NCBI GenBank assembly: GCA_965219385.1
Contig: CBDCNM010000001.1
Coordinates: 980,631 to 1,044,630, forward strand
Length of the DNA: 64,000 bases
Source of the DNA: Candidatus Latescibacterota bacterium
Lineage (GTDB): Bacteria; Latescibacterota; UBA2968; UBA8231
Reading direction: 5' to 3'
Position numbers and translations under genes: made by a program. Positions within the stretch are counted from its first letter, which is position 1. Each line of letters opens with the position of its first letter. The notes under the pieces were generated by a model, which saw only the letters and a list, made by a program, of their open reading frames with translations, was not told the origin of the DNA and did not search any database. Below, piece after piece: positions 13 to 22,288 of the stretch.

Positions 13-1029
13 GTGGAGTGCCTCCACTGGAGCGAGGCTTATCCCATTACCCCGAAAGAACACGGGATGGCCTACCTGATGGACCATCGTCATTTATGGC
101 TCCGGTCCACGCGGCCCCATGCCATTTTACGGGTCCGCAGCGAAGTGATCAAAGCCTGCAGGGACTTTATGGATGAGAGGGGGTTTACCTTGGCGGATGC
201 GCCTATTTTTACCCCGGCTGCCTGTGAAGGGACCACCACACTTTTCGAAACCGATTACTTTGGCGAAAAAGCCTATTTGACTCAGAGCGGTCAACTGTAT
301 ATGGAAGCGGCGGCTATGGCCTTTGGTAAGGTCTATTGTTTGGGTCCAACTTTCCGCTCGGAAAAGTCAAAGACCCGCAGACATCTGACCGAGTTCTGGA
401 TGATCGAGCCGGAAATGGCTTATTGCGATCTGGCTGGAGATATGGATCTGGCCGAAGATATGGTGGCCTATATCGTGGAGCGGGCGCTGGAGAACAGACA
501 GGAAGAATTAAAAACCCTGGAGCGGGATACCAGCAAGCTGGAAAGGATCCAAAAGCCTTTTCCCAGAATTTCTTATCAACAAGCTATTGGTATTTTGCAT
601 GAGGAGGGGAGTGATATTCAGTGGGGTTGGGACCTTGGAGGTGACGACGAGACCATTGTTTCGCAGCAGTATGAATCTCCTGTTCTGGTGCACCGCTACC
701 CCCTTGAGGTCAAGGCCTTTTACATGAAAGAAGATCCACAGGATCCAAGACTAGCACTTTGTATGGACATGCTCGCGCCCGAGGGGTATGGAGAGATCAT
801 CGGGGGGGGGCAACGCGAGGACGATCTGGTGGTCCTGGAAAAGAAGATTCAGGCCCATGAACTTCCCCAAGAAGCCTTTGAGTGGTACCTTGATCTTCGG
901 CGTTATGGGAGCGTGCCGCACGCCGGTTTTGGCATGGGTATTGAGAGGGTGGTGACCTGGATCTGTGGCCTCCACCACGTGCGTGAGACCATTCCATTCC
1001 CACGAACCTTACAGAGGTTGTATCCATGA
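13..1029 (+). CDS. asnS: Asparagine--tRNA ligase (5' partial, runs off window)
   Basis: Class II aaRS motifs [41 protein letters not shown]-terminal OB fold missing. Confidence 0.93.
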
Positions 1030-1063
1030 CAATTTTCCGTCAGATCGTCAGATTGAAGAAAAT

Positions 1064-1091
1064 ATGCCGTATAATATATTTTACGTAAATA
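1064..1091 (+). other. dif-like Xer recombination site 1
   Basis: ATGCCGTATAA-TATATT-TTACGTAAATA: 11-6-11 layout with ATAA/TTAY core resembling E. coli and B. subtilis dif. Confidence 0.7.
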
Positions 1092-1100
1092 TCTAACACC

Positions 1101-1329
1101 TCAAGCAAAACGCTTCATTCCAGCCATCTGCCTAACCGCCAACGAATCAGCAAGCGAAATAACGACTGCGTCGGACTCCTGGCCGTTCAGCAATAGCTCC
1201 GTTTCCTGTACTCGCAGCCGCAGGATGGTACGAAGGCTGAGCGCGAATTTGGGACGGTCGGGCTCAGCCTGTTGCCACGTGCCTACCAGTTCGTCGGCGT
1301 GTGCGTTCGCGTTGGGTAGGAGTCCTCAT
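1101..1329 (-). pseudogene. Possible small frameshifted ORF divergent from the recombinase
   Basis: GAAAGGAG SD then ATG at 1329 gives only 21 aa; removing 1 nt joins a 74-codon open frame (GLLPNANAHADELVGTWQ...MKRFA*). Confidence 0.35.
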
Positions 1330-1353
1330 CAGTGCGGGCTCCTTTCAAATTTG

Positions 1354-1381
1354 ACTAATGATAATTACCCTTCTAGTTAGT
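1354..1381. other. Quasi-palindromic tyrosine-recombinase-type site upstream of recombinase
   Basis: ACTAATGATAA-TTACCC-TTCTAGTTAGT; arms 8/11 self-complementary around a 6-bp spacer. Confidence 0.5.
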
Positions 1382-1477
1382 TAAATCAATATCTTGTTGA
1401 TGACAAAATTACTGGTTATGGCTATATTTAAAGTCCCTGGCACAGACTCCTCTTTTTCAGCGTTGAGAATTTCTAGC

Positions 1478-2422
1478 ATGGAAAACTTGCCTGTTGCATC
1501 ATCGGATCGCACGACACTAATTCGCACCGGTCCACTCGAACAATTTCTCGCCGGACAATTGAGCGAAAGCACCAGACGGGCCTACTTGGCCGACCTTTGC
1601 CGTTTTTTTGGCACTGATGATATTCAGCTGGACGATATCCGCTCGGTAACCTTTCAAGATGTCATTGAGTTCCGCAACCAGCTGGCCAGCCAAGGTTACA
1701 AACGCACGACCATCAACCGCAAGTTGTCCAGCCTGAAAGCCTTTTTTAAAATGATGGTCGCAACCGGCCTCATTGACAAAAACCCAGCGGATTCCACTCT
1801 GGTTCGTGGTTACAAGGTCGAGGATGCCCTGACCGGAAAAGCCATAGCCAACCAAGCGCTCAAACAGATCCTCAAGACCATCTCAGAAGAAAAAAACAGA
1901 CTGGCGCAAGCCCGTGATACGGCGATTGTTCATTTTTTGACCTTTGGCGGTCTGCGCCGTTCGGAAGTTGCCAATATAGCCTGGGATGATATCCGACCAG
2001 AAGGCGTTTTCTACCTTCTCAACCTCCCGCAGACCAAGTCCGGCGTTCCCCAGGAGATCAAACTACAACCAGTTGTCATCCACTACATGAATCTGTACCG
2101 CGAAACCCTTCTCGAAAACGGCTATACAGCACAAGGCAAAGCCTTCATAAGTCTTGCGCGCAATCAGTCGCACGGCAAGCCTCTGACGGATCAGTCGATT
2201 AACCTGATGGTTAAAAAATACGCCTTAAAAGCCGGTGTGCCCCACAACATTACCGCACATATGTTCCGTCATACCTGCTGCACGCTGGCTATTGAAGGCG
2301 GCGCCAAGCCTCAGCAGGTCCAGGCCCACTTGCGCCACAAAGACCTGAAAACAACCATGCGCTATTATGAGAACCGGGAAAAATTGACGGATAATGCGTC
2401 TGACTATATAAATTTGGGATGA
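1478..2422 (+). CDS. XerC/XerD-like tyrosine recombinase
   Basis: Catalytic R (GLRRSE), K (QTKSG), HxxR (HMFRH), H (LRHKD) and Y (TTMRY); SAM-like N-domain (TRRAYLADL, TINRKLSSLKAFF); ATG 1478 chosen over ORF start 1394. Confidence 0.92.
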   Translation: MENLPVASSDRTTLIRTGPLEQFLAGQLSESTRRAYLADLCRFFGTDDIQLDDIRSVTFQDVIEFRNQLASQGYKRTTINRKLSSLKAFFKMMVATGLIDKNPADSTLVRGYKVEDALTGKAIANQALKQILKTISEEKNRLAQARDTAIVHFLTFGGLRRSEVANIAWDDIRPEGVFYLLNLPQTKSGVPQEIKLQPVVIHYMNLYRETLLENGYTAQGKAFISLARNQSHGKPLTDQSINLMVKKYALKAGVPHNITAHMFRHTCCTLAIEGGAKPQQVQAHLRHKDLKTTMRYYENREKLTDNASDYINLG

Positions 2423-2446
2423 TTATTTGGAATTTTTTGCTGGATA

Positions 2447-2474
2447 AAGTTACATAAAAAATTTTATGCGGCAT
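2447..2474 (-). other. dif-like Xer recombination site 2
   Basis: Minus strand ATGCCGCATAA-AATTTT-TTATGTAACTT; arms 10/11 and 8/11 identical to site 1, inverted. Confidence 0.72.
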
Positions 2475-2489
2475 TATTATTTAAAAACC

Positions 2490-4274
2490 TCAAATCCGGC
2501 CAAACATCCGATCCAGCTCTGTCAATAGAATCTTCACAATGATCGGCCTCCCGTGAGGACAGACAAAAGGCTCCCTGGCTTTTAATAACCGCTCGATCAG
2601 TACCTGCATATCCTTTGAGGAAAGTTTCTCACCGGCTCGGATGGAGGTGTGACAGGCATAGGAAGCTGCCATGGCCTCTTGCAGGGTGTTCCTGATTTGT
2701 TTTTCCTCCAGAAGCTCATTGATAATTTTGCTGAAAACTTCACCTTCCCCCCAATCCTTCATTTCCACTGGGATGGATTCCACCAGGATGGTCCCAGGGC
2801 CAAATTCGCGCACGCCGAACCCAAGCCCTTTGAACAATCCCAGTGCCTCTCGCACCACTTCCATCTCCACTGAATCGAGATTTAACGTCAAGGGAAAGAG
2901 CAATTGTTGGGAGGCTGTGGCTTCGGCCTGGAATTGATCCAGGGCATCTTCAAAGCGGATGCGTTCATGGGCCACATGCTGGTCAATAATAAGGATTCCA
3001 TCCTTGATCGGCGCAATGATGTACTTGTTGTGCACCTGCCAGATAGCTGGGGCCTCCTCGAGATCCTCAAGCGCCGATTCCCCTACCTCATTCTTTTCTC
3101 CTGATTTGATGAGCTCTTCGGTGGCGGGCTTTGAAGGGGCCAGCAGGGACAAGGACAACTGATCCGTAGACTGGGCCTTCACCAGTTGAGGGCCCTTGTT
3201 TACCGACTCACCACTAGAAAAAAGAGATGAAGGCGATTCACCAACTTTTAATGGCTGAAATTCAGCCTCTGCGCCATACTTGAAAGAGGCGACCTCAGGC
3301 ATTTCCAGGGCCTTTCTAACGGCGGCTTGAATCACTTCACCCACACGTTTTTCGTCGGCAAAGCGGACCTCGCGCTTGGTAGGGTGAACATTGACATCGA
3401 TTTGCCTTGGGTCGAGGTTCAACCAGACAACAAATGAGGGGTGTTTATCCACAAGCAACCCACCGTAACCCCTGTAAACGGCCTGAATCAGGCCTTTGGA
3501 ATATACCGGCCGCCCCCTTACGATTAGAAACTGTTTGCCCCTGGAACGGCGACAGTGCGCCGGGCTGGATACAAAGACCTTGACTTCAATGCCCTCTTCA
3601 TCCAGTTCGGCTTCGTGCAATTCTTTAGAATCCACCCCCAACAAATCCCCTGCCCTTTCACGCCTTCCTCCGGGCAGCAGATTGAGGATGGTCCTGTCCT
3701 GATGCACCAAGCCAAATCCGACCCTGGGATGGGCTGCCGCCAACTGGACCATACTCTGGGTTATATAACGGGTTTCCGTTTCGACGTGGCGCAGGAACTT
3801 CCTGCGAGCCGGGGTATTAAAAAAAATATTCCGCACCGAGATGGTAGTCCCCACCGCACGTGAGGCGGCCTTCAGTTCGCGCCGGATCCCCCCCTCGATA
3901 ACCAGGTAGGTACCTTGGGCTTCTTCAGCCGGCCGGGTCTCTATGGTCATACGCGAAACAGCACCAATACTGGCCAGGGCTTCCCCCCTGAATCCCAAGG
4001 TAGAAATGCCAAATAAATCCGAGGGAGAATCCATCTTGCTGGTCGCATGTCGTTCAACCGAAAGAACCGCATCTTCGCGCACCATGCCCACTCCATCATC
4101 CACCACGGTTATAGCCTGCCTACCCCCGGCTTTCACCTCTACGCGCACCCTATTAGCCATTGCATCCAAAGCATTTTCGACCAGTTCCTTAACAACCGAA
4201 GCAGGTCGCTCAATAACTTCCCCAGCGGCTATCTTTTGTATGATATTGTCCGACAAAACCTGTATTTTAGCCAT
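2490..4274 (-). CDS. mutL: DNA mismatch repair endonuclease MutL
   Basis: IAAGEVIERPASVVKELVEN, GFRGEAL, DQHVAHER, CPHGRP. Confidence 0.97.
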   Translation of the reverse strand: MAKIQVLSDNIIQKIAAGEVIERPASVVKELVENALDAMANRVRVEVKAGGRQAITVVDDGVGMVREDAVLSVERHATSKMDSPSDLFGISTLGFRGEALASIGAVSRMTIETRPAEEAQGTYLVIEGGIRRELKAASRAVGTTISVRNIFFNTPARRKFLRHVETETRYITQSMVQLAAAHPRVGFGLVHQDRTILNLLPGGRRERAGDLLGVDSKELHEAELDEEGIEVKVFVSSPAHCRRSRGKQFLIVRGRPVYSKGLIQAVYRGYGGLLVDKHPSFVVWLNLDPRQIDVNVHPTKREVRFADEKRVGEVIQAAVRKALEMPEVASFKYGAEAEFQPLKVGESPSSLFSSGESVNKGPQLVKAQSTDQLSLSLLAPSKPATEELIKSGEKNEVGESALEDLEEAPAIWQVHNKYIIAPIKDGILIIDQHVAHERIRFEDALDQFQAEATASQQLLFPLTLNLDSVEMEVVREALGLFKGLGFGVREFGPGTILVESIPVEMKDWGEGEVFSKIINELLEEKQIRNTLQEAMAASYACHTSIRAGEKLSSKDMQVLIERLLKAREPFVCPHGRPIIVKILLTELDRMFGRI

Positions 4275-4306
4275 GGTTCAATGATTATACCAATATACCC
4301 TCTGCT

Positions 4307-4879
4307 TCACATTTCAGCCCAGAGGGCCTCACGCGCTTTTTCATAGTCTTCCAGACTGATTCTTCCTTCGCGAAACTCTTTTTCCAGCTCTTGCAGGCGC
4401 CGGCGAGGAGATCCAATTCCCTTCCGATCTTTTTGAACCTGGCTCCATAAATGCCAAAGCCCCAACCCGAACAGACCGGCTACGAAACCAACCCCGGCCA
4501 GTTCCTTACTTGTTATATCCTCACTGTCTTCATAGCCGACGGTAATGCCCTGGGACCTCCAGTAACTCACTTGTTCGGGCGGAATCTCCTGATTGCCCTG
4601 AAGAACAATAGCCTGGGTTGTCACCTCTCTGTCCTCATGGGTTAACTGAACCGGTTCTTTCAACTGGCAATTCAACCCAAATGGGGTGATCGTAATATGC
4701 TTGAGCCGACCCTCGGTACTGAAGCCTTGGAATTGCTCAGCAGTCACGGGGATTTCGGGCGAGTTGAGAAAATTCAAACCCAAAACAATAAAGAGCAATC
4801 CACCTGCCAGGGCCAATGAAAACTTTACTGGGGAACCAGAAGTATGCCCATCTTCTTTTTTACTATTCAATTCTAACAT
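4307..4879 (-). CDS. Hypothetical membrane protein (two TM helices, short C-terminal SHOCT-like helix)
   Basis: Two hydrophobic segments; C-terminal GRISLEDYEKAREAL. Confidence 0.6.
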   Translation of the reverse strand: MLELNSKKEDGHTSGSPVKFSLALAGGLLFIVLGLNFLNSPEIPVTAEQFQGFSTEGRLKHITITPFGLNCQLKEPVQLTHEDREVTTQAIVLQGNQEIPPEQVSYWRSQGITVGYEDSEDITSKELAGVGFVAGLFGLGLWHLWSQVQKDRKGIGSPRRRLQELEKEFREGRISLEDYEKAREALWAEM

Positions 4880-5777
4880 CTTTTCTCAGGACCTCTCTAT
4901 TATGCCGGGCGGATTGTTGAATCCAGTCGTGAAAAAAATGGGCTGAAACAGCTTCATCCCCGCCAAAAATGGGTGCCTGGCCAAACCGTATAACATCTCC
5001 AAAGTCCCTGTACTGCGCTTCCAAGCCTTCAGAAGACTTCAATTGATTTTGCTTGAACTCCACGGATCCATGGCTTCCGTAGAGCTGAATTATCGCCTCT
5101 TCTTGCTCGCCAAGCCCGTTCACCTGAAAAACGGCTTCCAAACCATCTTTGAATCTTAACTGAGCTACCATCACATCTTCAACCGGTCGATTGAATCCCA
5201 GGCTCTGCGACCGAGCGAAGATTGAATCGATTTCCCCAAAATACTCTAAAATCAAACATATATAGTTAAAACCGTGCAGCAAAACTACCCCTTCCCGCTC
5301 GTTCTCAGTCCACTTCTGCGGCAAGGATACCCTCAGGTCAAAAAACAAAAGCGATCCAATCTCTCTTTCCCTTAAAATACGGCGAATAGTTGTACCGAAA
5401 GACGAAAACAGAACATCGGCCACTACAGCAAGTCGGGCTCTTGATTGGCCGCACCGGGAGACAATTGTCCGTGCCTGCCGGCATGTTCGAGCCAAGGGCG
5501 AATTGCACAGGATATGTTTACCGGCTCGAATTGCTTCTTTGAACCAGAATTCGCTCTCCGATAAGGGAGTACAGAGGACGATCCCTTTTACTTCAGGATT
5601 GTTTATAGCCTCCGAATAATCCGTGGTGTCCGGAGACTGTGGAAACACTGGTTGGAGATCCTCAAATACCTTGATGACCTCAAATTCACCCAGGTTTTCC
5701 AGAGCAGATAAATGCATAGGCAAATTGCATCTTCCCAGAATGGCCAATCCACCTCCCATATCCTTGCTCATACCCAA
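4863..5777 (-). CDS. Divergent Gfo/Idh/MocA-family oxidoreductase
   Basis: DYSEAINNPEVKGIVLCTP...AIRAGKHILCNSPLA pattern. Confidence 0.65.
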   Translation of the reverse strand: MGMSKDMGGGLAILGRCNLPMHLSALENLGEFEVIKVFEDLQPVFPQSPDTTDYSEAINNPEVKGIVLCTPLSESEFWFKEAIRAGKHILCNSPLARTCRQARTIVSRCGQSRARLAVVADVLFSSFGTTIRRILREREIGSLLFFDLRVSLPQKWTENEREGVVLLHGFNYICLILEYFGEIDSIFARSQSLGFNRPVEDVMVAQLRFKDGLEAVFQVNGLGEQEEAIIQLYGSHGSVEFKQNQLKSSEGLEAQYRDFGDVIRFGQAPIFGGDEAVSAHFFHDWIQQSARHNREVLRKDVRIE

Positions 5778-6811: not shown

Positions 6812-7711
6812 TTAAACCATGTTTTCCACGATGCGCCTATAGCCATCGTATCTTATTGGGGCAATTTCACCGCGCTCTACGGCCTCCCTCACCGCACATC
6901 CTGGCTCGTGTAGATGCACACAATCCCTAAATTGGCAATGCAACACCAAAGGGGCCATTTCCGCAAAATACTCGACCAGAGTGGAACGTTCTACTTGCCA
7001 AAGTCGCAGCTTTTTAATGCCGGGCGTGTCCGCTACAGAGCCCCTGGATTCTTTCAAAGGGTACAATCGCACCGCAGCCGTGGTGTGGCGACCTCGATCG
7101 TGTCTTAACATCAGGGATTTGGTCTTAATGGAAAGATCGGGATCAATTCTGTTCAACAGAGTCGATTTCCCGACACCGGAGTATCCAATGAGAACCGAAA
7201 CCCGGTCTTTGAGCACCTCCTTGAATTCATCTAAACCCACGCCCGTCTTGGCGCTGGTATAGTATACCTTGTAGCCAAGGTCCAGATAAACCTTGCCTAC
7301 CGGCTGAACCAGGTGTTCTGGATCCAGATCAACCTTGTTAATACAAATAATGGGTTCCACATCCCCCTTGTGCGCCATGACCACCGCCCGGTCGATGAAA
7401 CCCACTCGCAAAGCAGGACTGGAAGTTGCTACTACAATAATTAGTTGATCGAGGTTAACGGCTACGATTTGTTCGTAGGGCTTTGATCCACTGGCGGCGC
7501 GAGAAAACTTGGAATACCTGGGATATACCTTGTCAATAACCCCGCCCTCAGGAGAGGTGGGTTCGATTTCAACCCAGTCTCCCACGATCACAGGTGCACT
7601 ACTGGTGCGCTTACCGGCTTTAACGCGCCCCCGGAGCTGACATACCCACTGAACATCACTCACCTCTACCAGGCATTGTAATCCAGATACTCGAATTACA
7701 CGTCCCTTCAT
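6812..7711 (-). CDS. rsgA: Ribosome small subunit-dependent GTPase A
   Basis: NKVD, GYSGVGKSTL, GRHTT, DTPG, CQFRDCVHLHEPGCAV. Confidence 0.96.
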   Translation of the reverse strand: MKGRVIRVSGLQCLVEVSDVQWVCQLRGRVKAGKRTSSAPVIVGDWVEIEPTSPEGGVIDKVYPRYSKFSRAASGSKPYEQIVAVNLDQLIIVVATSSPALRVGFIDRAVVMAHKGDVEPIICINKVDLDPEHLVQPVGKVYLDLGYKVYYTSAKTGVGLDEFKEVLKDRVSVLIGYSGVGKSTLLNRIDPDLSIKTKSLMLRHDRGRHTTAAVRLYPLKESRGSVADTPGIKKLRLWQVERSTLVEYFAEMAPLVLHCQFRDCVHLHEPGCAVREAVERGEIAPIRYDGYRRIVENMV

Positions 7712-8485: not shown

Positions 8486-9424
8486 TCAGGTAAAAAGCGC
8501 GCTGATTGAGGTTTCCTGATGGATTGCCTTGATGGCGCTGGCAAAAAGCGGTGCGACCGAACACACCTGTATCTTGGAGTTTCTGCTACCTGGCGTTAGA
8601 GGAATCGTATCCGTAATTGCAAGACATTCGAGGGCTGAGTCGTTTATGTGGTTTGCCGCATCTCCGGCCAGAGTTCCGTGTACACATCCGGCATAAATCT
8701 TGCTACATCCCCCCTCTCGGACGGCCCGAGTCCCGTCAAATATTGATTCTCCTGTGATAATTTCATCATCAAAAAAAATCACATCCCTGCCTTTTACATC
8801 GCCTATGACCCCATGTACCCGCATCTGTCCATCAAGCCCCCGCCGCTTGTCAATCACGACGAGGGGCAATCCCAATCGTTTGGCATACGATTCAGCAACC
8901 TTGGCACGGCCGATATCCGGGGCGGCGGCAACACAATTTTGGAGGTCCACTCTGGAATAATAAGCGCAAATGTTGGGAACGCCACTCAATTGATCCACCG
9001 GCATTCTACAAAAACCCATGATCTGCGGACTGTGCAGACTCATGGTCAAGATGCGATCAGTCCCAGCCTCGTTGAGCAGATCGGCCATCAAGCGACCCGC
9101 AACGGAAATGCGGGGTTCGTCCTTGCTGTCGGACAAAGCATAGGGATAATAGGGTAAAACCGCGGTAATCCGTCCGGCTGAGGCATACTTTAGAGCATCC
9201 AGGGCAATGAGGAGTTCCATCAGATATTCACTCACCGGGGGGCATGAAGTCTGGATGAAAAACACATCGCACCCACGCACATTCTCGCATATTTTAACCT
9301 TGATATTCTCGTTGCTGAAACGCACAAATTCAATCTGGCCCAGCTCCAACTCTAAAGCCTCACAAATACCCCGCGCCAGTGGCCGGTTGCTCTGACCAGC
9401 AAAAACCTTAAGGGGTCCGCTCAT
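8486..9424 (-). CDS. prs: Ribose-phosphate pyrophosphokinase, paralogue 1 (divergent)
   Basis: ENVRGCDVFFIQT, RITAVLPYYPY, DKRR, DDEIITG. Confidence 0.88.
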   Translation of the reverse strand: MSGPLKVFAGQSNRPLARGICEALELELGQIEFVRFSNENIKVKICENVRGCDVFFIQTSCPPVSEYLMELLIALDALKYASAGRITAVLPYYPYALSDSKDEPRISVAGRLMADLLNEAGTDRILTMSLHSPQIMGFCRMPVDQLSGVPNICAYYSRVDLQNCVAAAPDIGRAKVAESYAKRLGLPLVVIDKRRGLDGQMRVHGVIGDVKGRDVIFFDDEIITGESIFDGTRAVREGGCSKIYAGCVHGTLAGDAANHINDSALECLAITDTIPLTPGSRNSKIQVCSVAPLFASAIKAIHQETSISALFT

Positions 9425-12123: not shown

Positions 12124-12151
12124 TATTTACATAAAAATTATTATACGGCTT
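12124..12151 (-). other. dif-like Xer site 3
   Basis: Minus strand AAGCCGTATAA-TAATTT-TTATGTAAATA; both arms 10/11 identical to site 1. Confidence 0.7.
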
Positions 12152-12371: not shown

Positions 12372-13328
12372 TTAATCAAGTAAACGGCTCACAGACTCCC
12401 CGTGGTGAATCGCCTTTATGGCCTCCCCTATCATTCGACCGACGGAAACCACTTCAATCTTATCGGTGGGTTTTTCCGCTGGAAGAGGAATGGTATTGGT
12501 GACGACAAAGGTCTCAATCGGAGATGCATCAATACGCTCGAGGGCATTTCCAGCAAAAACTCCATGGGTACAGCCGGCCAAAATACGCCGTACCCCCTTC
12601 TCTTTAAGGAGTTTAACTGCTTCCATCATGGAACCTCCAGTGAGGACTTCATCATCGAAAAGAAGGGCATCCTTCCCTTCTATATCTCCAATAATATTAA
12701 GTATTTCAGCCTGTTCATCATCACCGTGTCGTCTTTTGTCCATAATGGCCAGTGGCAAATCTATCCTGCGGGCGTAAAAACTCGCTTCATCTGCACTTCC
12801 AACATCCGGAGATACCACCACAGCGTTGTTTAAATTCTTGGTTCTCAGGTGATTGCAAAGCAGCCCAGTCGCCCAGAGCTGATCTACTGGGATACGAGAA
12901 AAAGCAGCAATCTGCGGAGAGTGCAAGGTCATAGTCAAGATCCGGTCCGCCCCAGCGGTCTCGAGCAGGTCGGCCATGAGCCGCGCTGATATCGAGATAC
13001 GGGGCTCGTCTTTCTTATCTGAACGCACATAGGGGAAATAGGGCAAAACAGCGGTGATCCGCCGGGCAGATGCATACTTGAGGGCATCGATCAGGAGCAA
13101 AAGCTCGATGAAATGGTCATTTACCGGGGAACTGGAAGTCTGCACCACAAACACATCGTCTTCGCGGACATTTTCCCGAACCTTGACTTTGATATTATCG
13201 TTGGGACTTCGCTCTATGCTCTGGCGCCCTGGCTGGATATCAAGGTATTCACAGATTTCGTAGACAAGCCCGGAATTGCTTGTACCGGCCATGACCTTTA
13301 GATAATTCTTCATTTCGGCAATTCCCAA
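12372..13328 (-). CDS. prs: Ribose-phosphate pyrophosphokinase, paralogue 2
   Basis: YFPYVRSDKK, LHSPQI, SPDVG, DKRR, DDEVLTGGS. Confidence 0.92.
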   Translation of the reverse strand: MGIAEMKNYLKVMAGTSNSGLVYEICEYLDIQPGRQSIERSPNDNIKVKVRENVREDDVFVVQTSSSPVNDHFIELLLLIDALKYASARRITAVLPYFPYVRSDKKDEPRISISARLMADLLETAGADRILTMTLHSPQIAAFSRIPVDQLWATGLLCNHLRTKNLNNAVVVSPDVGSADEASFYARRIDLPLAIMDKRRHGDDEQAEILNIIGDIEGKDALLFDDEVLTGGSMMEAVKLLKEKGVRRILAGCTHGVFAGNALERIDASPIETFVVTNTIPLPAEKPTDKIEVVSVGRMIGEAIKAIHHGESVSRLLD

Positions 13329-22260: not shown

Positions 22261-22288
22261 TACTTACACAACAAAAATTATGCGTCAT
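22261..22288 (-). other. dif-like Xer site 4 (more degenerate)
   Basis: Minus strand ATGACGCATAA-TTTTTG-TTGTGTAAGTA. Confidence 0.55.

Follow-up and report, generated by a model that had tools for sequence, protein, structure and literature searches.

Layout of the locus at the replication terminus

The stretch of DNA analysed here (the window, 64,000 nucleotides) corresponds to C1:980631-1044630 of the 5.8-Mb assembly of a Candidatus Latescibacterota bacterium, in which two contigs, C1 and C2, are distinguished, and it carries close to its left end a 1.4-kb unit composed of a gene for a divergent Xer-like tyrosine recombinase, here called X, a near-palindromic site, here called P, and two inverted dif sites of the XerC/D type. 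The unit is flanked on the left by the 3' part of asnS (asparaginyl-tRNA synthetase; 1-1029, + strand; Pfam tRNA-synt_2, E 5e-73), which is present in one copy in the genome according to tblastn, and on the right by mutL (2490-4274, - strand; Pfam MutL_C, DNA_mis_repair, and HATPase_c_3), which is convergent with X.

The structural gene for X (1478-2422, + strand) is an intact open reading frame of 314 amino acids counted from the ATG. Matches of its product to Pfam Phage_integrase (PF00589; 90.8 bits, cut-off 27.1) and SAM_1 place it in the tyrosine recombinase superfamily, and the catalytic residues R160/R161, K187, H261, R264, H287, and Y296/Y297 do not vary among 12 aligned homologues and line up with the motifs of E. 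coli XerD. When compared with the more specific profiles, X scored 128.3 bits for the XerC equivalog TIGR02224 (cut-off 335.15), 121.9 bits for the XerD equivalog TIGR02225 (cut-off 329.6), 111.4 bits for XerA NF040815 (cut-off 220), and 79.3 bits for XerS NF003462 (cut-off 267); XerA is found among the top NCBIfam and PDB matches of X. Canonical genes are located on contig C2, one for XerD with 355 bits, above the cut-off, and one for XerC with 333 bits against a cut-off of 335, and XerC/D-type genes were detected across the family, in 25 of 26 genomes. Because X scores far below the cut-offs for XerC and XerD and because both of these enzymes are encoded elsewhere in the genome, X is, judged by these profiles, a third Xer paralogue.

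Site P (1354-1381), the putative cognate site of X, is organized as 11-6-11, with arms at 1354-1364 and 1371-1381 that are complementary at 8 of 11 positions and a central region at 1365-1370, and it lies 97 bp upstream of the ATG of X. It matches the family pattern ACTA-NN-GATAA, 6 bp, TTAT-NNN-TAGT with 1 mismatch, the family consensus differing from the right arm found in this genome, and it is unique in the genome when up to 1 mismatch is allowed. P was detected upstream of X in all 12 loci of a first set and in 51 of the 56 loci of a larger set, in which loci were oriented with X on the + strand and 53 have at least 600 nt of upstream sequence. The arms of P resemble each other, are as conserved as X itself, and differ from the arms of the flanking dif sites. 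Since P has two like arms, matches X in conservation, and always accompanies X where it occurs, X probably acts at P. The six central bases are kept as TRCCYG in either orientation, 16 times forward and 25 times reverse among 41 scored loci; on the tree of X their orientation relative to the gene changed at least 4 times, 3 of these changes being forced, and the closely related L059 and L077 differ, within collinear flanks, by reversal of P or of its centre alone. That the centre is conserved while its direction is free is more in keeping with a recombination core occupied by a homodimer than with a directional regulatory element. A predicted sigma-70-like promoter of X (1400-1428, + strand; -35 at 1400-1405, -10 at 1423-1428), which is the best promoter-like match of the region (10/12), starts 19 bp after P, and the stretch GCTATATTT with its -10 element also occurs in L059 and L077. 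As P ends 19 bp before the -35 element, autoregulation of X seems likely.

The left dif site (1064-1091, + strand) comprises a C arm at 1064-1074, a central region at 1075-1080, and a D arm at 1081-1091, and it scored 37.6 bits with a position weight matrix (PWM) derived from 19 sites that had been collected with a short degenerate motif in the loci of relatives. The right dif site (2447-2474, - strand; 36.5 bits) is inverted, and its D arm starts 25 bp past the stop codon of X. Both cores are 28 bp long, are organized as 11-6-11, and present a variable arm ending in YATAA outward and a conserved arm, TTAYGTAA, inward; they form the cores of the inverted repeat I1, whose 36-nt arms (1053-1088 and 2450-2485) are 75% complementary. 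The conserved arm presumably corresponds to the XerD-binding arm of the dif sites of E. coli and B. subtilis, and the layout resembles, and is named here, C|D...D|C, with XerC-like arms facing outward and XerD-like arms facing inward. The left and the right site differ from each other at 2 of 6 central positions, and the outer arms vary between genera. The same motif was found once, at a skew change, in G029, a genome of a sister family that lacks X. A further candidate, in G025 (1 mismatch), was not used as evidence, there being no skew change within 12.5 kb of it. Because X-less relatives have no dif candidate other than this motif, the flanking sites would be the ordinary XerC/D-type dif of the lineage, and XerC and XerD presumably act there.

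The maximum of the cumulative GC skew of C1, the inferred replication terminus, is located at position 968 (C1:981598), 96 bp from the left dif site, and the genes to the left of the peak are mostly on the + strand and those to the right mostly on the - strand. The skew was also sampled 40 kb to either side of the locus in five relatives (G018, G002, G013, G008, and G017): calculated per 10 kb, it switches between positive and negative at the X locus of G018, G002, and G008, the switch is weaker in G013, and the X-less G017 displays no clear skew at the equivalent locus. X is thus located at the skew switch in all 5 closed or near-closed X-bearing genomes examined (G000, G018, G002, G013, and G008), and from the coincidence of locus and skew switch, here and in relatives, the X locus is taken to be the replication terminus. 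The terminus region C1:950000-1050000, which includes the whole window, has a G+C content of 0.53-0.55, and that of the rest of the genome is about 0.60.

When the whole genome was scanned with the PWM, only six sites reached at least 23.7 bits, all within 50 kb (C1:953692-1002918), and the next best score was 18.2 bits. To the left of X lie three + strand sites and to its right three - strand sites (+ + + | - - -). Besides the two sites bounding the unit, these are C1:953692 and C1:966809, both + and outside the window, and, in the same orientation as the right site, 12125-12151 (-, 38.0 bits) and the weaker 22262-22288 (-, 23.7 bits). The intervals carry housekeeping genes, namely miaA, der, rimP-nusA-infB-rbfA-truB-pnp, and asnS on the left and mutL, hprK, rsgA, prs, ychF, and valS on the right, which ruled out that they are islands formed by integrative mobile elements exploiting Xer (IMEX). 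Only two sites were detected within 40 kb to either side of the locus in G018, G002, G013, and G008. Two prs paralogues (ribose-phosphate pyrophosphokinase; 8489-9424 and 12375-13328) flank the extra site at 12125, and a McrBC-type restriction pair (an AAA_5 ATPase and McrC; C1:950866-953695) stops exactly at the outermost left site.

The spacer between the left dif site and P (1092-1353) measures 263 bp, has a GC content of 0.58, and is found in this genome only; in the loci of relatives only about 15-50 bp separate an upstream dif site from P. It has no second copy in the genome according to blastn and gave no match of note when compared with Rfam (best 20 bits, gathering score 100). On its minus strand there is a stop-to-stop frame of 74 codons (1101-1325) that has no ATG, GTG, or TTG near its start. 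Contigs from a diverged strain (Logan run X1) end at 1091 and restart at 1346, leaving 1092-1345 uncovered, and the spacer may be absent or different in that strain.

A sequence-only reading of this DNA had described a 1.4-kb unit between asnS and mutL that is bounded by inverted C|D...D|C sites and contains an intact tyrosine recombinase and a quasi-palindrome at 1354-1381, and in these respects it was correct: both flanking genes are recognized by Pfam, the inverted sites are confirmed by I1 and by their PWM scores of 37.6 and 36.5 bits, the recombinase by its intact reading frame, its Pfam domains, and its invariant catalytic residues, and the quasi-palindrome by its 8 of 11 complementary arm positions and its conservation upstream of X.

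Descent of X and inversion of the dif-bounded segment

A search at a cut-off of E 1e-25 detected X in 48 of 63 further genomes of the family and gave no hit in the 87 genomes that represented 13 other families of the phylum. It is single-copy in each X-bearing genome, with the exception of two genomes in which the gene is split across fragments, and the public names of its close homologues point to metagenome-assembled genomes of Latescibacterota. Pairwise identities of X and MutL are correlated (Pearson 0.97, Spearman 0.73; 41 loci giving 820 non-independent pairs of linked genes), and with identities of 59-99% for X versus 34-98% for MutL, X is the more conserved of the two. Its distribution and divergence indicate that X is a vertically inherited gene under strong constraint and not a mobile cassette.

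The commonest order in relatives is mutL(+), an optional dif(+), P, X(+), dif(-), and leuS(-). The gene upstream of X was identified as mutL by tblastn; it is upstream and co-directional in 48 of the 56 loci and downstream in none, unlike the genome studied here, in which X and mutL are convergent. The orientation of the dif-type sites follows a rule: upstream of X a + site is found in 29/56 loci and a - site in 0/56, and downstream a - site is found in 42/56 and a + site in 3/56. Among the 52 loci whose flanking sequence is long enough, 39 carry the downstream - site no more than 200 nt past the stop codon, and a site with this position and orientation is found in 12/12 loci of the first set. 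In L061, L063, L096, and L101 the dif(+) is located between mutL and P, and from these loci this genome differs by inversion of the P-X cassette only, its cassette thus being flipped with respect to other genera.

In a genus-level cluster of 22 genomes the sites enclose 3.5 kb with the order dif-ORF174-mutL-P-X-dif, and the flanks of this segment, leuS and a gene designated Z, swap sides, form A (leuS on the left) being present in 10 genomes and form B (Z on the left) in 12. This swap is the exact product of an inversion, and the dif-bounded segment must therefore invert, with both orientations existing between genomes. A tree built from the interior DNA requires no fewer than 6 changes of orientation among the 22 genomes, of which well-supported branches force 5; the observed minimum is close to the mean of 7.6 changes obtained with shuffled labels. 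Even sister genomes separated by about 0.03 substitutions per site differ in the orientation of the segment. For the sisters L050 and L053 the change in homology falls inside the 27-bp site, with 43 of 45 matches outside and 44 of 45 inside in an ungapped comparison, in which other pairs were blurred by small indels; since homology swaps partner at the site, the breakpoints lie within the 27-bp sites. These comparisons show that the dif-bounded segment has flipped many times between relatives, with breakpoints in the sites. The idea that sites with differing central regions never recombine was ruled out by flips between sisters whose sites now differ.

In a g13-type cluster (L051, L052, L053, L059, L068, and L076) leuS is bracketed by direct dif-type sites, at about 3945 and about 6870-6890, with differing central regions. 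No such leuS is found at the terminus of the genome studied here, and a distant homologue (37-47% identity, two high-scoring segment pairs) is located at C1:305899-308334.

Some relatives lack X. G015 and G106, of the X-less genus g16, have one near-symmetric site. In G015 and G017, both X-less members of the family, the slot beside mutL holds a gene for a Cre-like recombinase that is 23-27% identical to X (L025, 5962-7000, in G015; L024, 5727-6743, in G017). G017 has an 'empty' inverted dif pair whose sites are only 23 bp apart (L024, about 5611-5685), followed by a palindrome resembling P (3 mismatches), by the Cre-like gene, and by a weaker directly oriented site, an arrangement suggestive of an element that has integrated at one site of the pair. 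A module consisting of a palindromic site and its own recombinase thus appears to have occupied the slot repeatedly, and multimer resolution is the textbook role of such modules, as in Cre/lox on P1 and XerS/difSL. The DNA upstream of the Cre-like gene of G015 presumably resembles one arm of loxP. Two Cre-like genes in the genome studied here (C2:1479975-1480865 and C2:1022258-1023157) are 47-50% identical to the slot gene of G017.

P-like sequences also occur away from X. Hybrid sites consisting of one P-type arm, 6 bp, and another arm were counted against a control pattern and amounted to 84 versus 5 in G013, 28 versus 2 in G008, and 17 versus 0 in G018; they were at control level in five X-less genomes, and in the genome studied here half-sites amounted to 4 versus 4. 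The hybrid sites form same-orientation arrays around 1-9 kb of metabolic genes, for example at G013:C2:1134276-1156261 and G008:C1:5655216-5664844 (L105 and L104), and some are found beside fragments of Y2-type (IS91-like) transposases. G008 has three perfect P-type palindromes, of which the two extra ones (C1:191343 and 4492316; L106 and L107) have other central regions and are located far from X near IS110-type and Mutator-type transposase genes.

Proposed roles of X, P, and the flanking sites

Taking these observations together, we consider it reasonably probable that the core of the terminus recombination locus is a single-recombinase module of the XerS/difSL kind nested in an invertible dif pair. 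In an outer layer, the two inverted dif copies recombine, presumably through catalysis by the host's XerC and XerD, and flip the DNA between them; as the crossover takes place inside the dif sites and the inner arms move with the segment, the module stays bracketed by dif sites at the terminus. The inner layer would be a self-contained module consisting of the vertically inherited X and its own site P directly upstream of the X promoter. A homodimer of X on both arms of P would pair the P sites of sister chromosomes and exchange strands across the 6-bp centre, and the resulting crossover would turn a chromosome dimer into monomers. In this role in dimer resolution, X and P would operate alongside XerCD at the flanking dif sites or serve as its back-up, and P-bound X probably regulates its own promoter. 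Of the possibilities that the sequence-only reading had offered, a single recombinase embedded in a XerCD-type site pair is favoured by the conserved X and the conserved P at the GC-skew switch, its function being probable as outlined above, and an invertible unit is supported by the at least 6 flips among 22 genomes and by the cassette that is inverted relative to L061, L063, L096, and L101; the mobile option was not borne out, X being single-copy, restricted to one family, and situated at the terminus, with a divergence that follows that of mutL.

Several points weigh against the nested module. The pairings of X with P and of XerCD with the flanking sites are both ones that we infer, and P, lying just upstream of the X promoter, could be an operator only. 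A second system for dimer resolution looks redundant since canonical XerC and XerD and dif-type sites are present. In E. coli the DNA beside the XerD arm is required for activation by FtsK, according to the part of PMC2673442 drawn on here; with the XerD-like arms pointing inward, FtsK would encounter the XerC side first whichever replichore it came from, not the side that is activating in E. coli, and for this reason the dif pair brings no obvious gain for resolution by XerCD. The central regions are identical in only 5 of 27 site pairs and show 1-4 differences in the other 22, and in the Acinetobacter plasmids described in PMC9947245, XerC/D inversion proved reversible only where the two sites had the same spacer. 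The Logan runs X5, X6, and X8 display only the reference orientation over 390-4500 and no joint at the sites, such contigs being unable to show minority forms. Finally, the palindromes of G008 and the hybrid P-arm sites suggest that X may have other or additional substrates.

The locus could instead be a self-contained invertible element in which X is a Hin-like invertase acting on the flanking dif-like repeats and P is an operator or accessory site where no crossover occurs. X does lie inside the flipping segment with P abutting its promoter, the downstream site follows closely behind its stop codon (9-24 bp in most listed pairs, besides the 39/52 loci within 200 nt), and inverted pairs are found in X-bearing genomes whereas the X-less g16 genomes G015 and G106 have a single near-symmetric site. 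However, the flanking motif is also the single dif of the X-less G029, and the X-less G017 retains an inverted pair. The arms of P are unlike the flanking arms and like each other, as expected of a homodimer site, and they are as conserved as X whereas the outer dif arms are variable; moreover, a centre conserved in either orientation would be unusual for a simple operator. We regard an X-driven invertase as unlikely. Much the same low probability is assigned to a model in which the inward-facing dif-type sites are oriented roadblocks or unloading sites that shield P, the true dif, which X alone would resolve, flipping being an occasional side reaction. The arrangement of six sites around X with housekeeping genes between them and the orientation rule across the 56 loci are in line with such a boundary. 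In the portion of PMC11840125 used here (citing Karaboja 2021), XDS are dif-like terminus sequences where XerD unloads Smc-ScpAB, and according to PMC2800217, XerCD-dif halted FtsK from both sides in vitro (79% and 83%); because XerCD-dif stops FtsK from either side, an inward-facing pair could be a double roadblock around P. Yet the array is not general, as G018, G002, G013, and G008 have two sites only, and the flanking sites do recombine.

That the unit is a mobile dif module or an IMEX moved between replicons by XerCD and caught here by chance is very improbable. The C|D...D|C bracket is what we take to be the layout of pdif modules, a different recombinase gene occupies the same slot in G015 and G017, and the gene in G017 lies between two directly oriented sites in an IMEX-like manner. 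D and C modules are named in PMC13141974. Against mobility, X is single-copy apart from the two genomes with a fragmented gene, confined to one family (0/87 genomes elsewhere in the phylum), situated at the skew switch in G000, G018, G002, G013, and G008, and located beside the same core genes, mutL and leuS. Because X is single-copy, occurs in one family, resides at the terminus, and has a divergence that tracks that of mutL, the unit is not a mobile pdif module.

Elements of the nested module and of the boundary model can also be joined. The inward dif sites would then be polar roadblocks or unloaders (for FtsK, SMC, and perhaps replisomes) that insulate P, the third Xer enzyme would resolve dimers there, possibly independently of FtsK, flipping would be tolerated, and X might in addition be the host factor of an undescribed cassette system, to which the hybrid-site arrays would belong. 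This joint reading also appears rather improbable.

Relation to known Xer systems

Xer/dif systems are described as having one site per chromosome, on which either the XerC/XerD pair or a lone recombinase acts. The family studied here combines the two kinds, the ordinary dif is doubled head-to-head, and the DNA between its copies flips on short evolutionary time scales, sometimes together with mutL. The unit may thus be described as known kinds in a new combination, a single-recombinase Xer module inside an invertible pair of chromosomal dif sites, with the functions proposed above. If these roles are true, chromosomal dif sites are capable of causing repeated inversions at the terminus, XerCD can be joined by a recruited third Xer paralogue, and the locus would provide a natural system for studying the effect of site orientation relative to FtsK. 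A literature search, made mostly by titles and abstracts, found no description of this Latescibacterota arrangement and returned only papers on Acinetobacter plasmids, on Xer in general, and on unrelated soil microbiomes.

As in XerS/difSL of streptococci and lactococci, and also in XerH/difH and XerL/dif, a single Xer gene is located beside its own terminus site, the two being inherited as one module (as described in parts of PMC5357621 and, for XerL, of PMC9765430). A recombinase gene beside a site at the terminus is likewise what was found here, with P as the probable site of X. The two differ in that difSL has 31 bp with an 11-bp centre (same part of PMC5357621) whereas P has a 6-bp centre and near-perfect 11-bp arms, in that X reaches only 79 bits against the XerS cut-off of 267, and in that here XerC and XerD are also present and the module is nested in an inverted dif pair. 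Archaeal XerA/dif, in the account given in that portion of PMC5357621, is similar to the module in having two 11-bp inverted repeats, a 6-bp centre, a single recombinase, and a gene-site module; it differs in that X scores 111 bits versus 220 and in that the present case concerns a bacterial host, a skew switch, and flanking sites of the XerCD type.

The pdif modules of Acinetobacter plasmids are comparable in that oppositely oriented XerC/D sites bound a segment and mediate its inversion (as reported in a section of PMC9947245), and the unit is bounded by such sites. The present unit, however, is chromosomal, single-copy, located at the terminus, and vertically conserved across a family, and the same module was not found in different replicons or positions; its cargo consists of a recombinase and its own site, and in one genus also mutL, instead of resistance genes, and flips are seen even between pairs whose central regions now differ. 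From an IMEX it differs in that its flanking dif-type sites are inverted and not directly oriented. With canonical XerCD/dif it shares 28-bp 11-6-11 sites at a GC-skew switch and the presence of genes for XerC and XerD, but the dif site is doubled in inverted orientation and is not unique, with six copies found in this genome and two each in the relatives G018, G002, G013, and G008. The XDS of B. subtilis, of which several dif-like sites are scattered in the terminus according to the consulted part of PMC11840125, are similar in this respect, and they differ from the sites described here in that the latter keep both arms and recombine.

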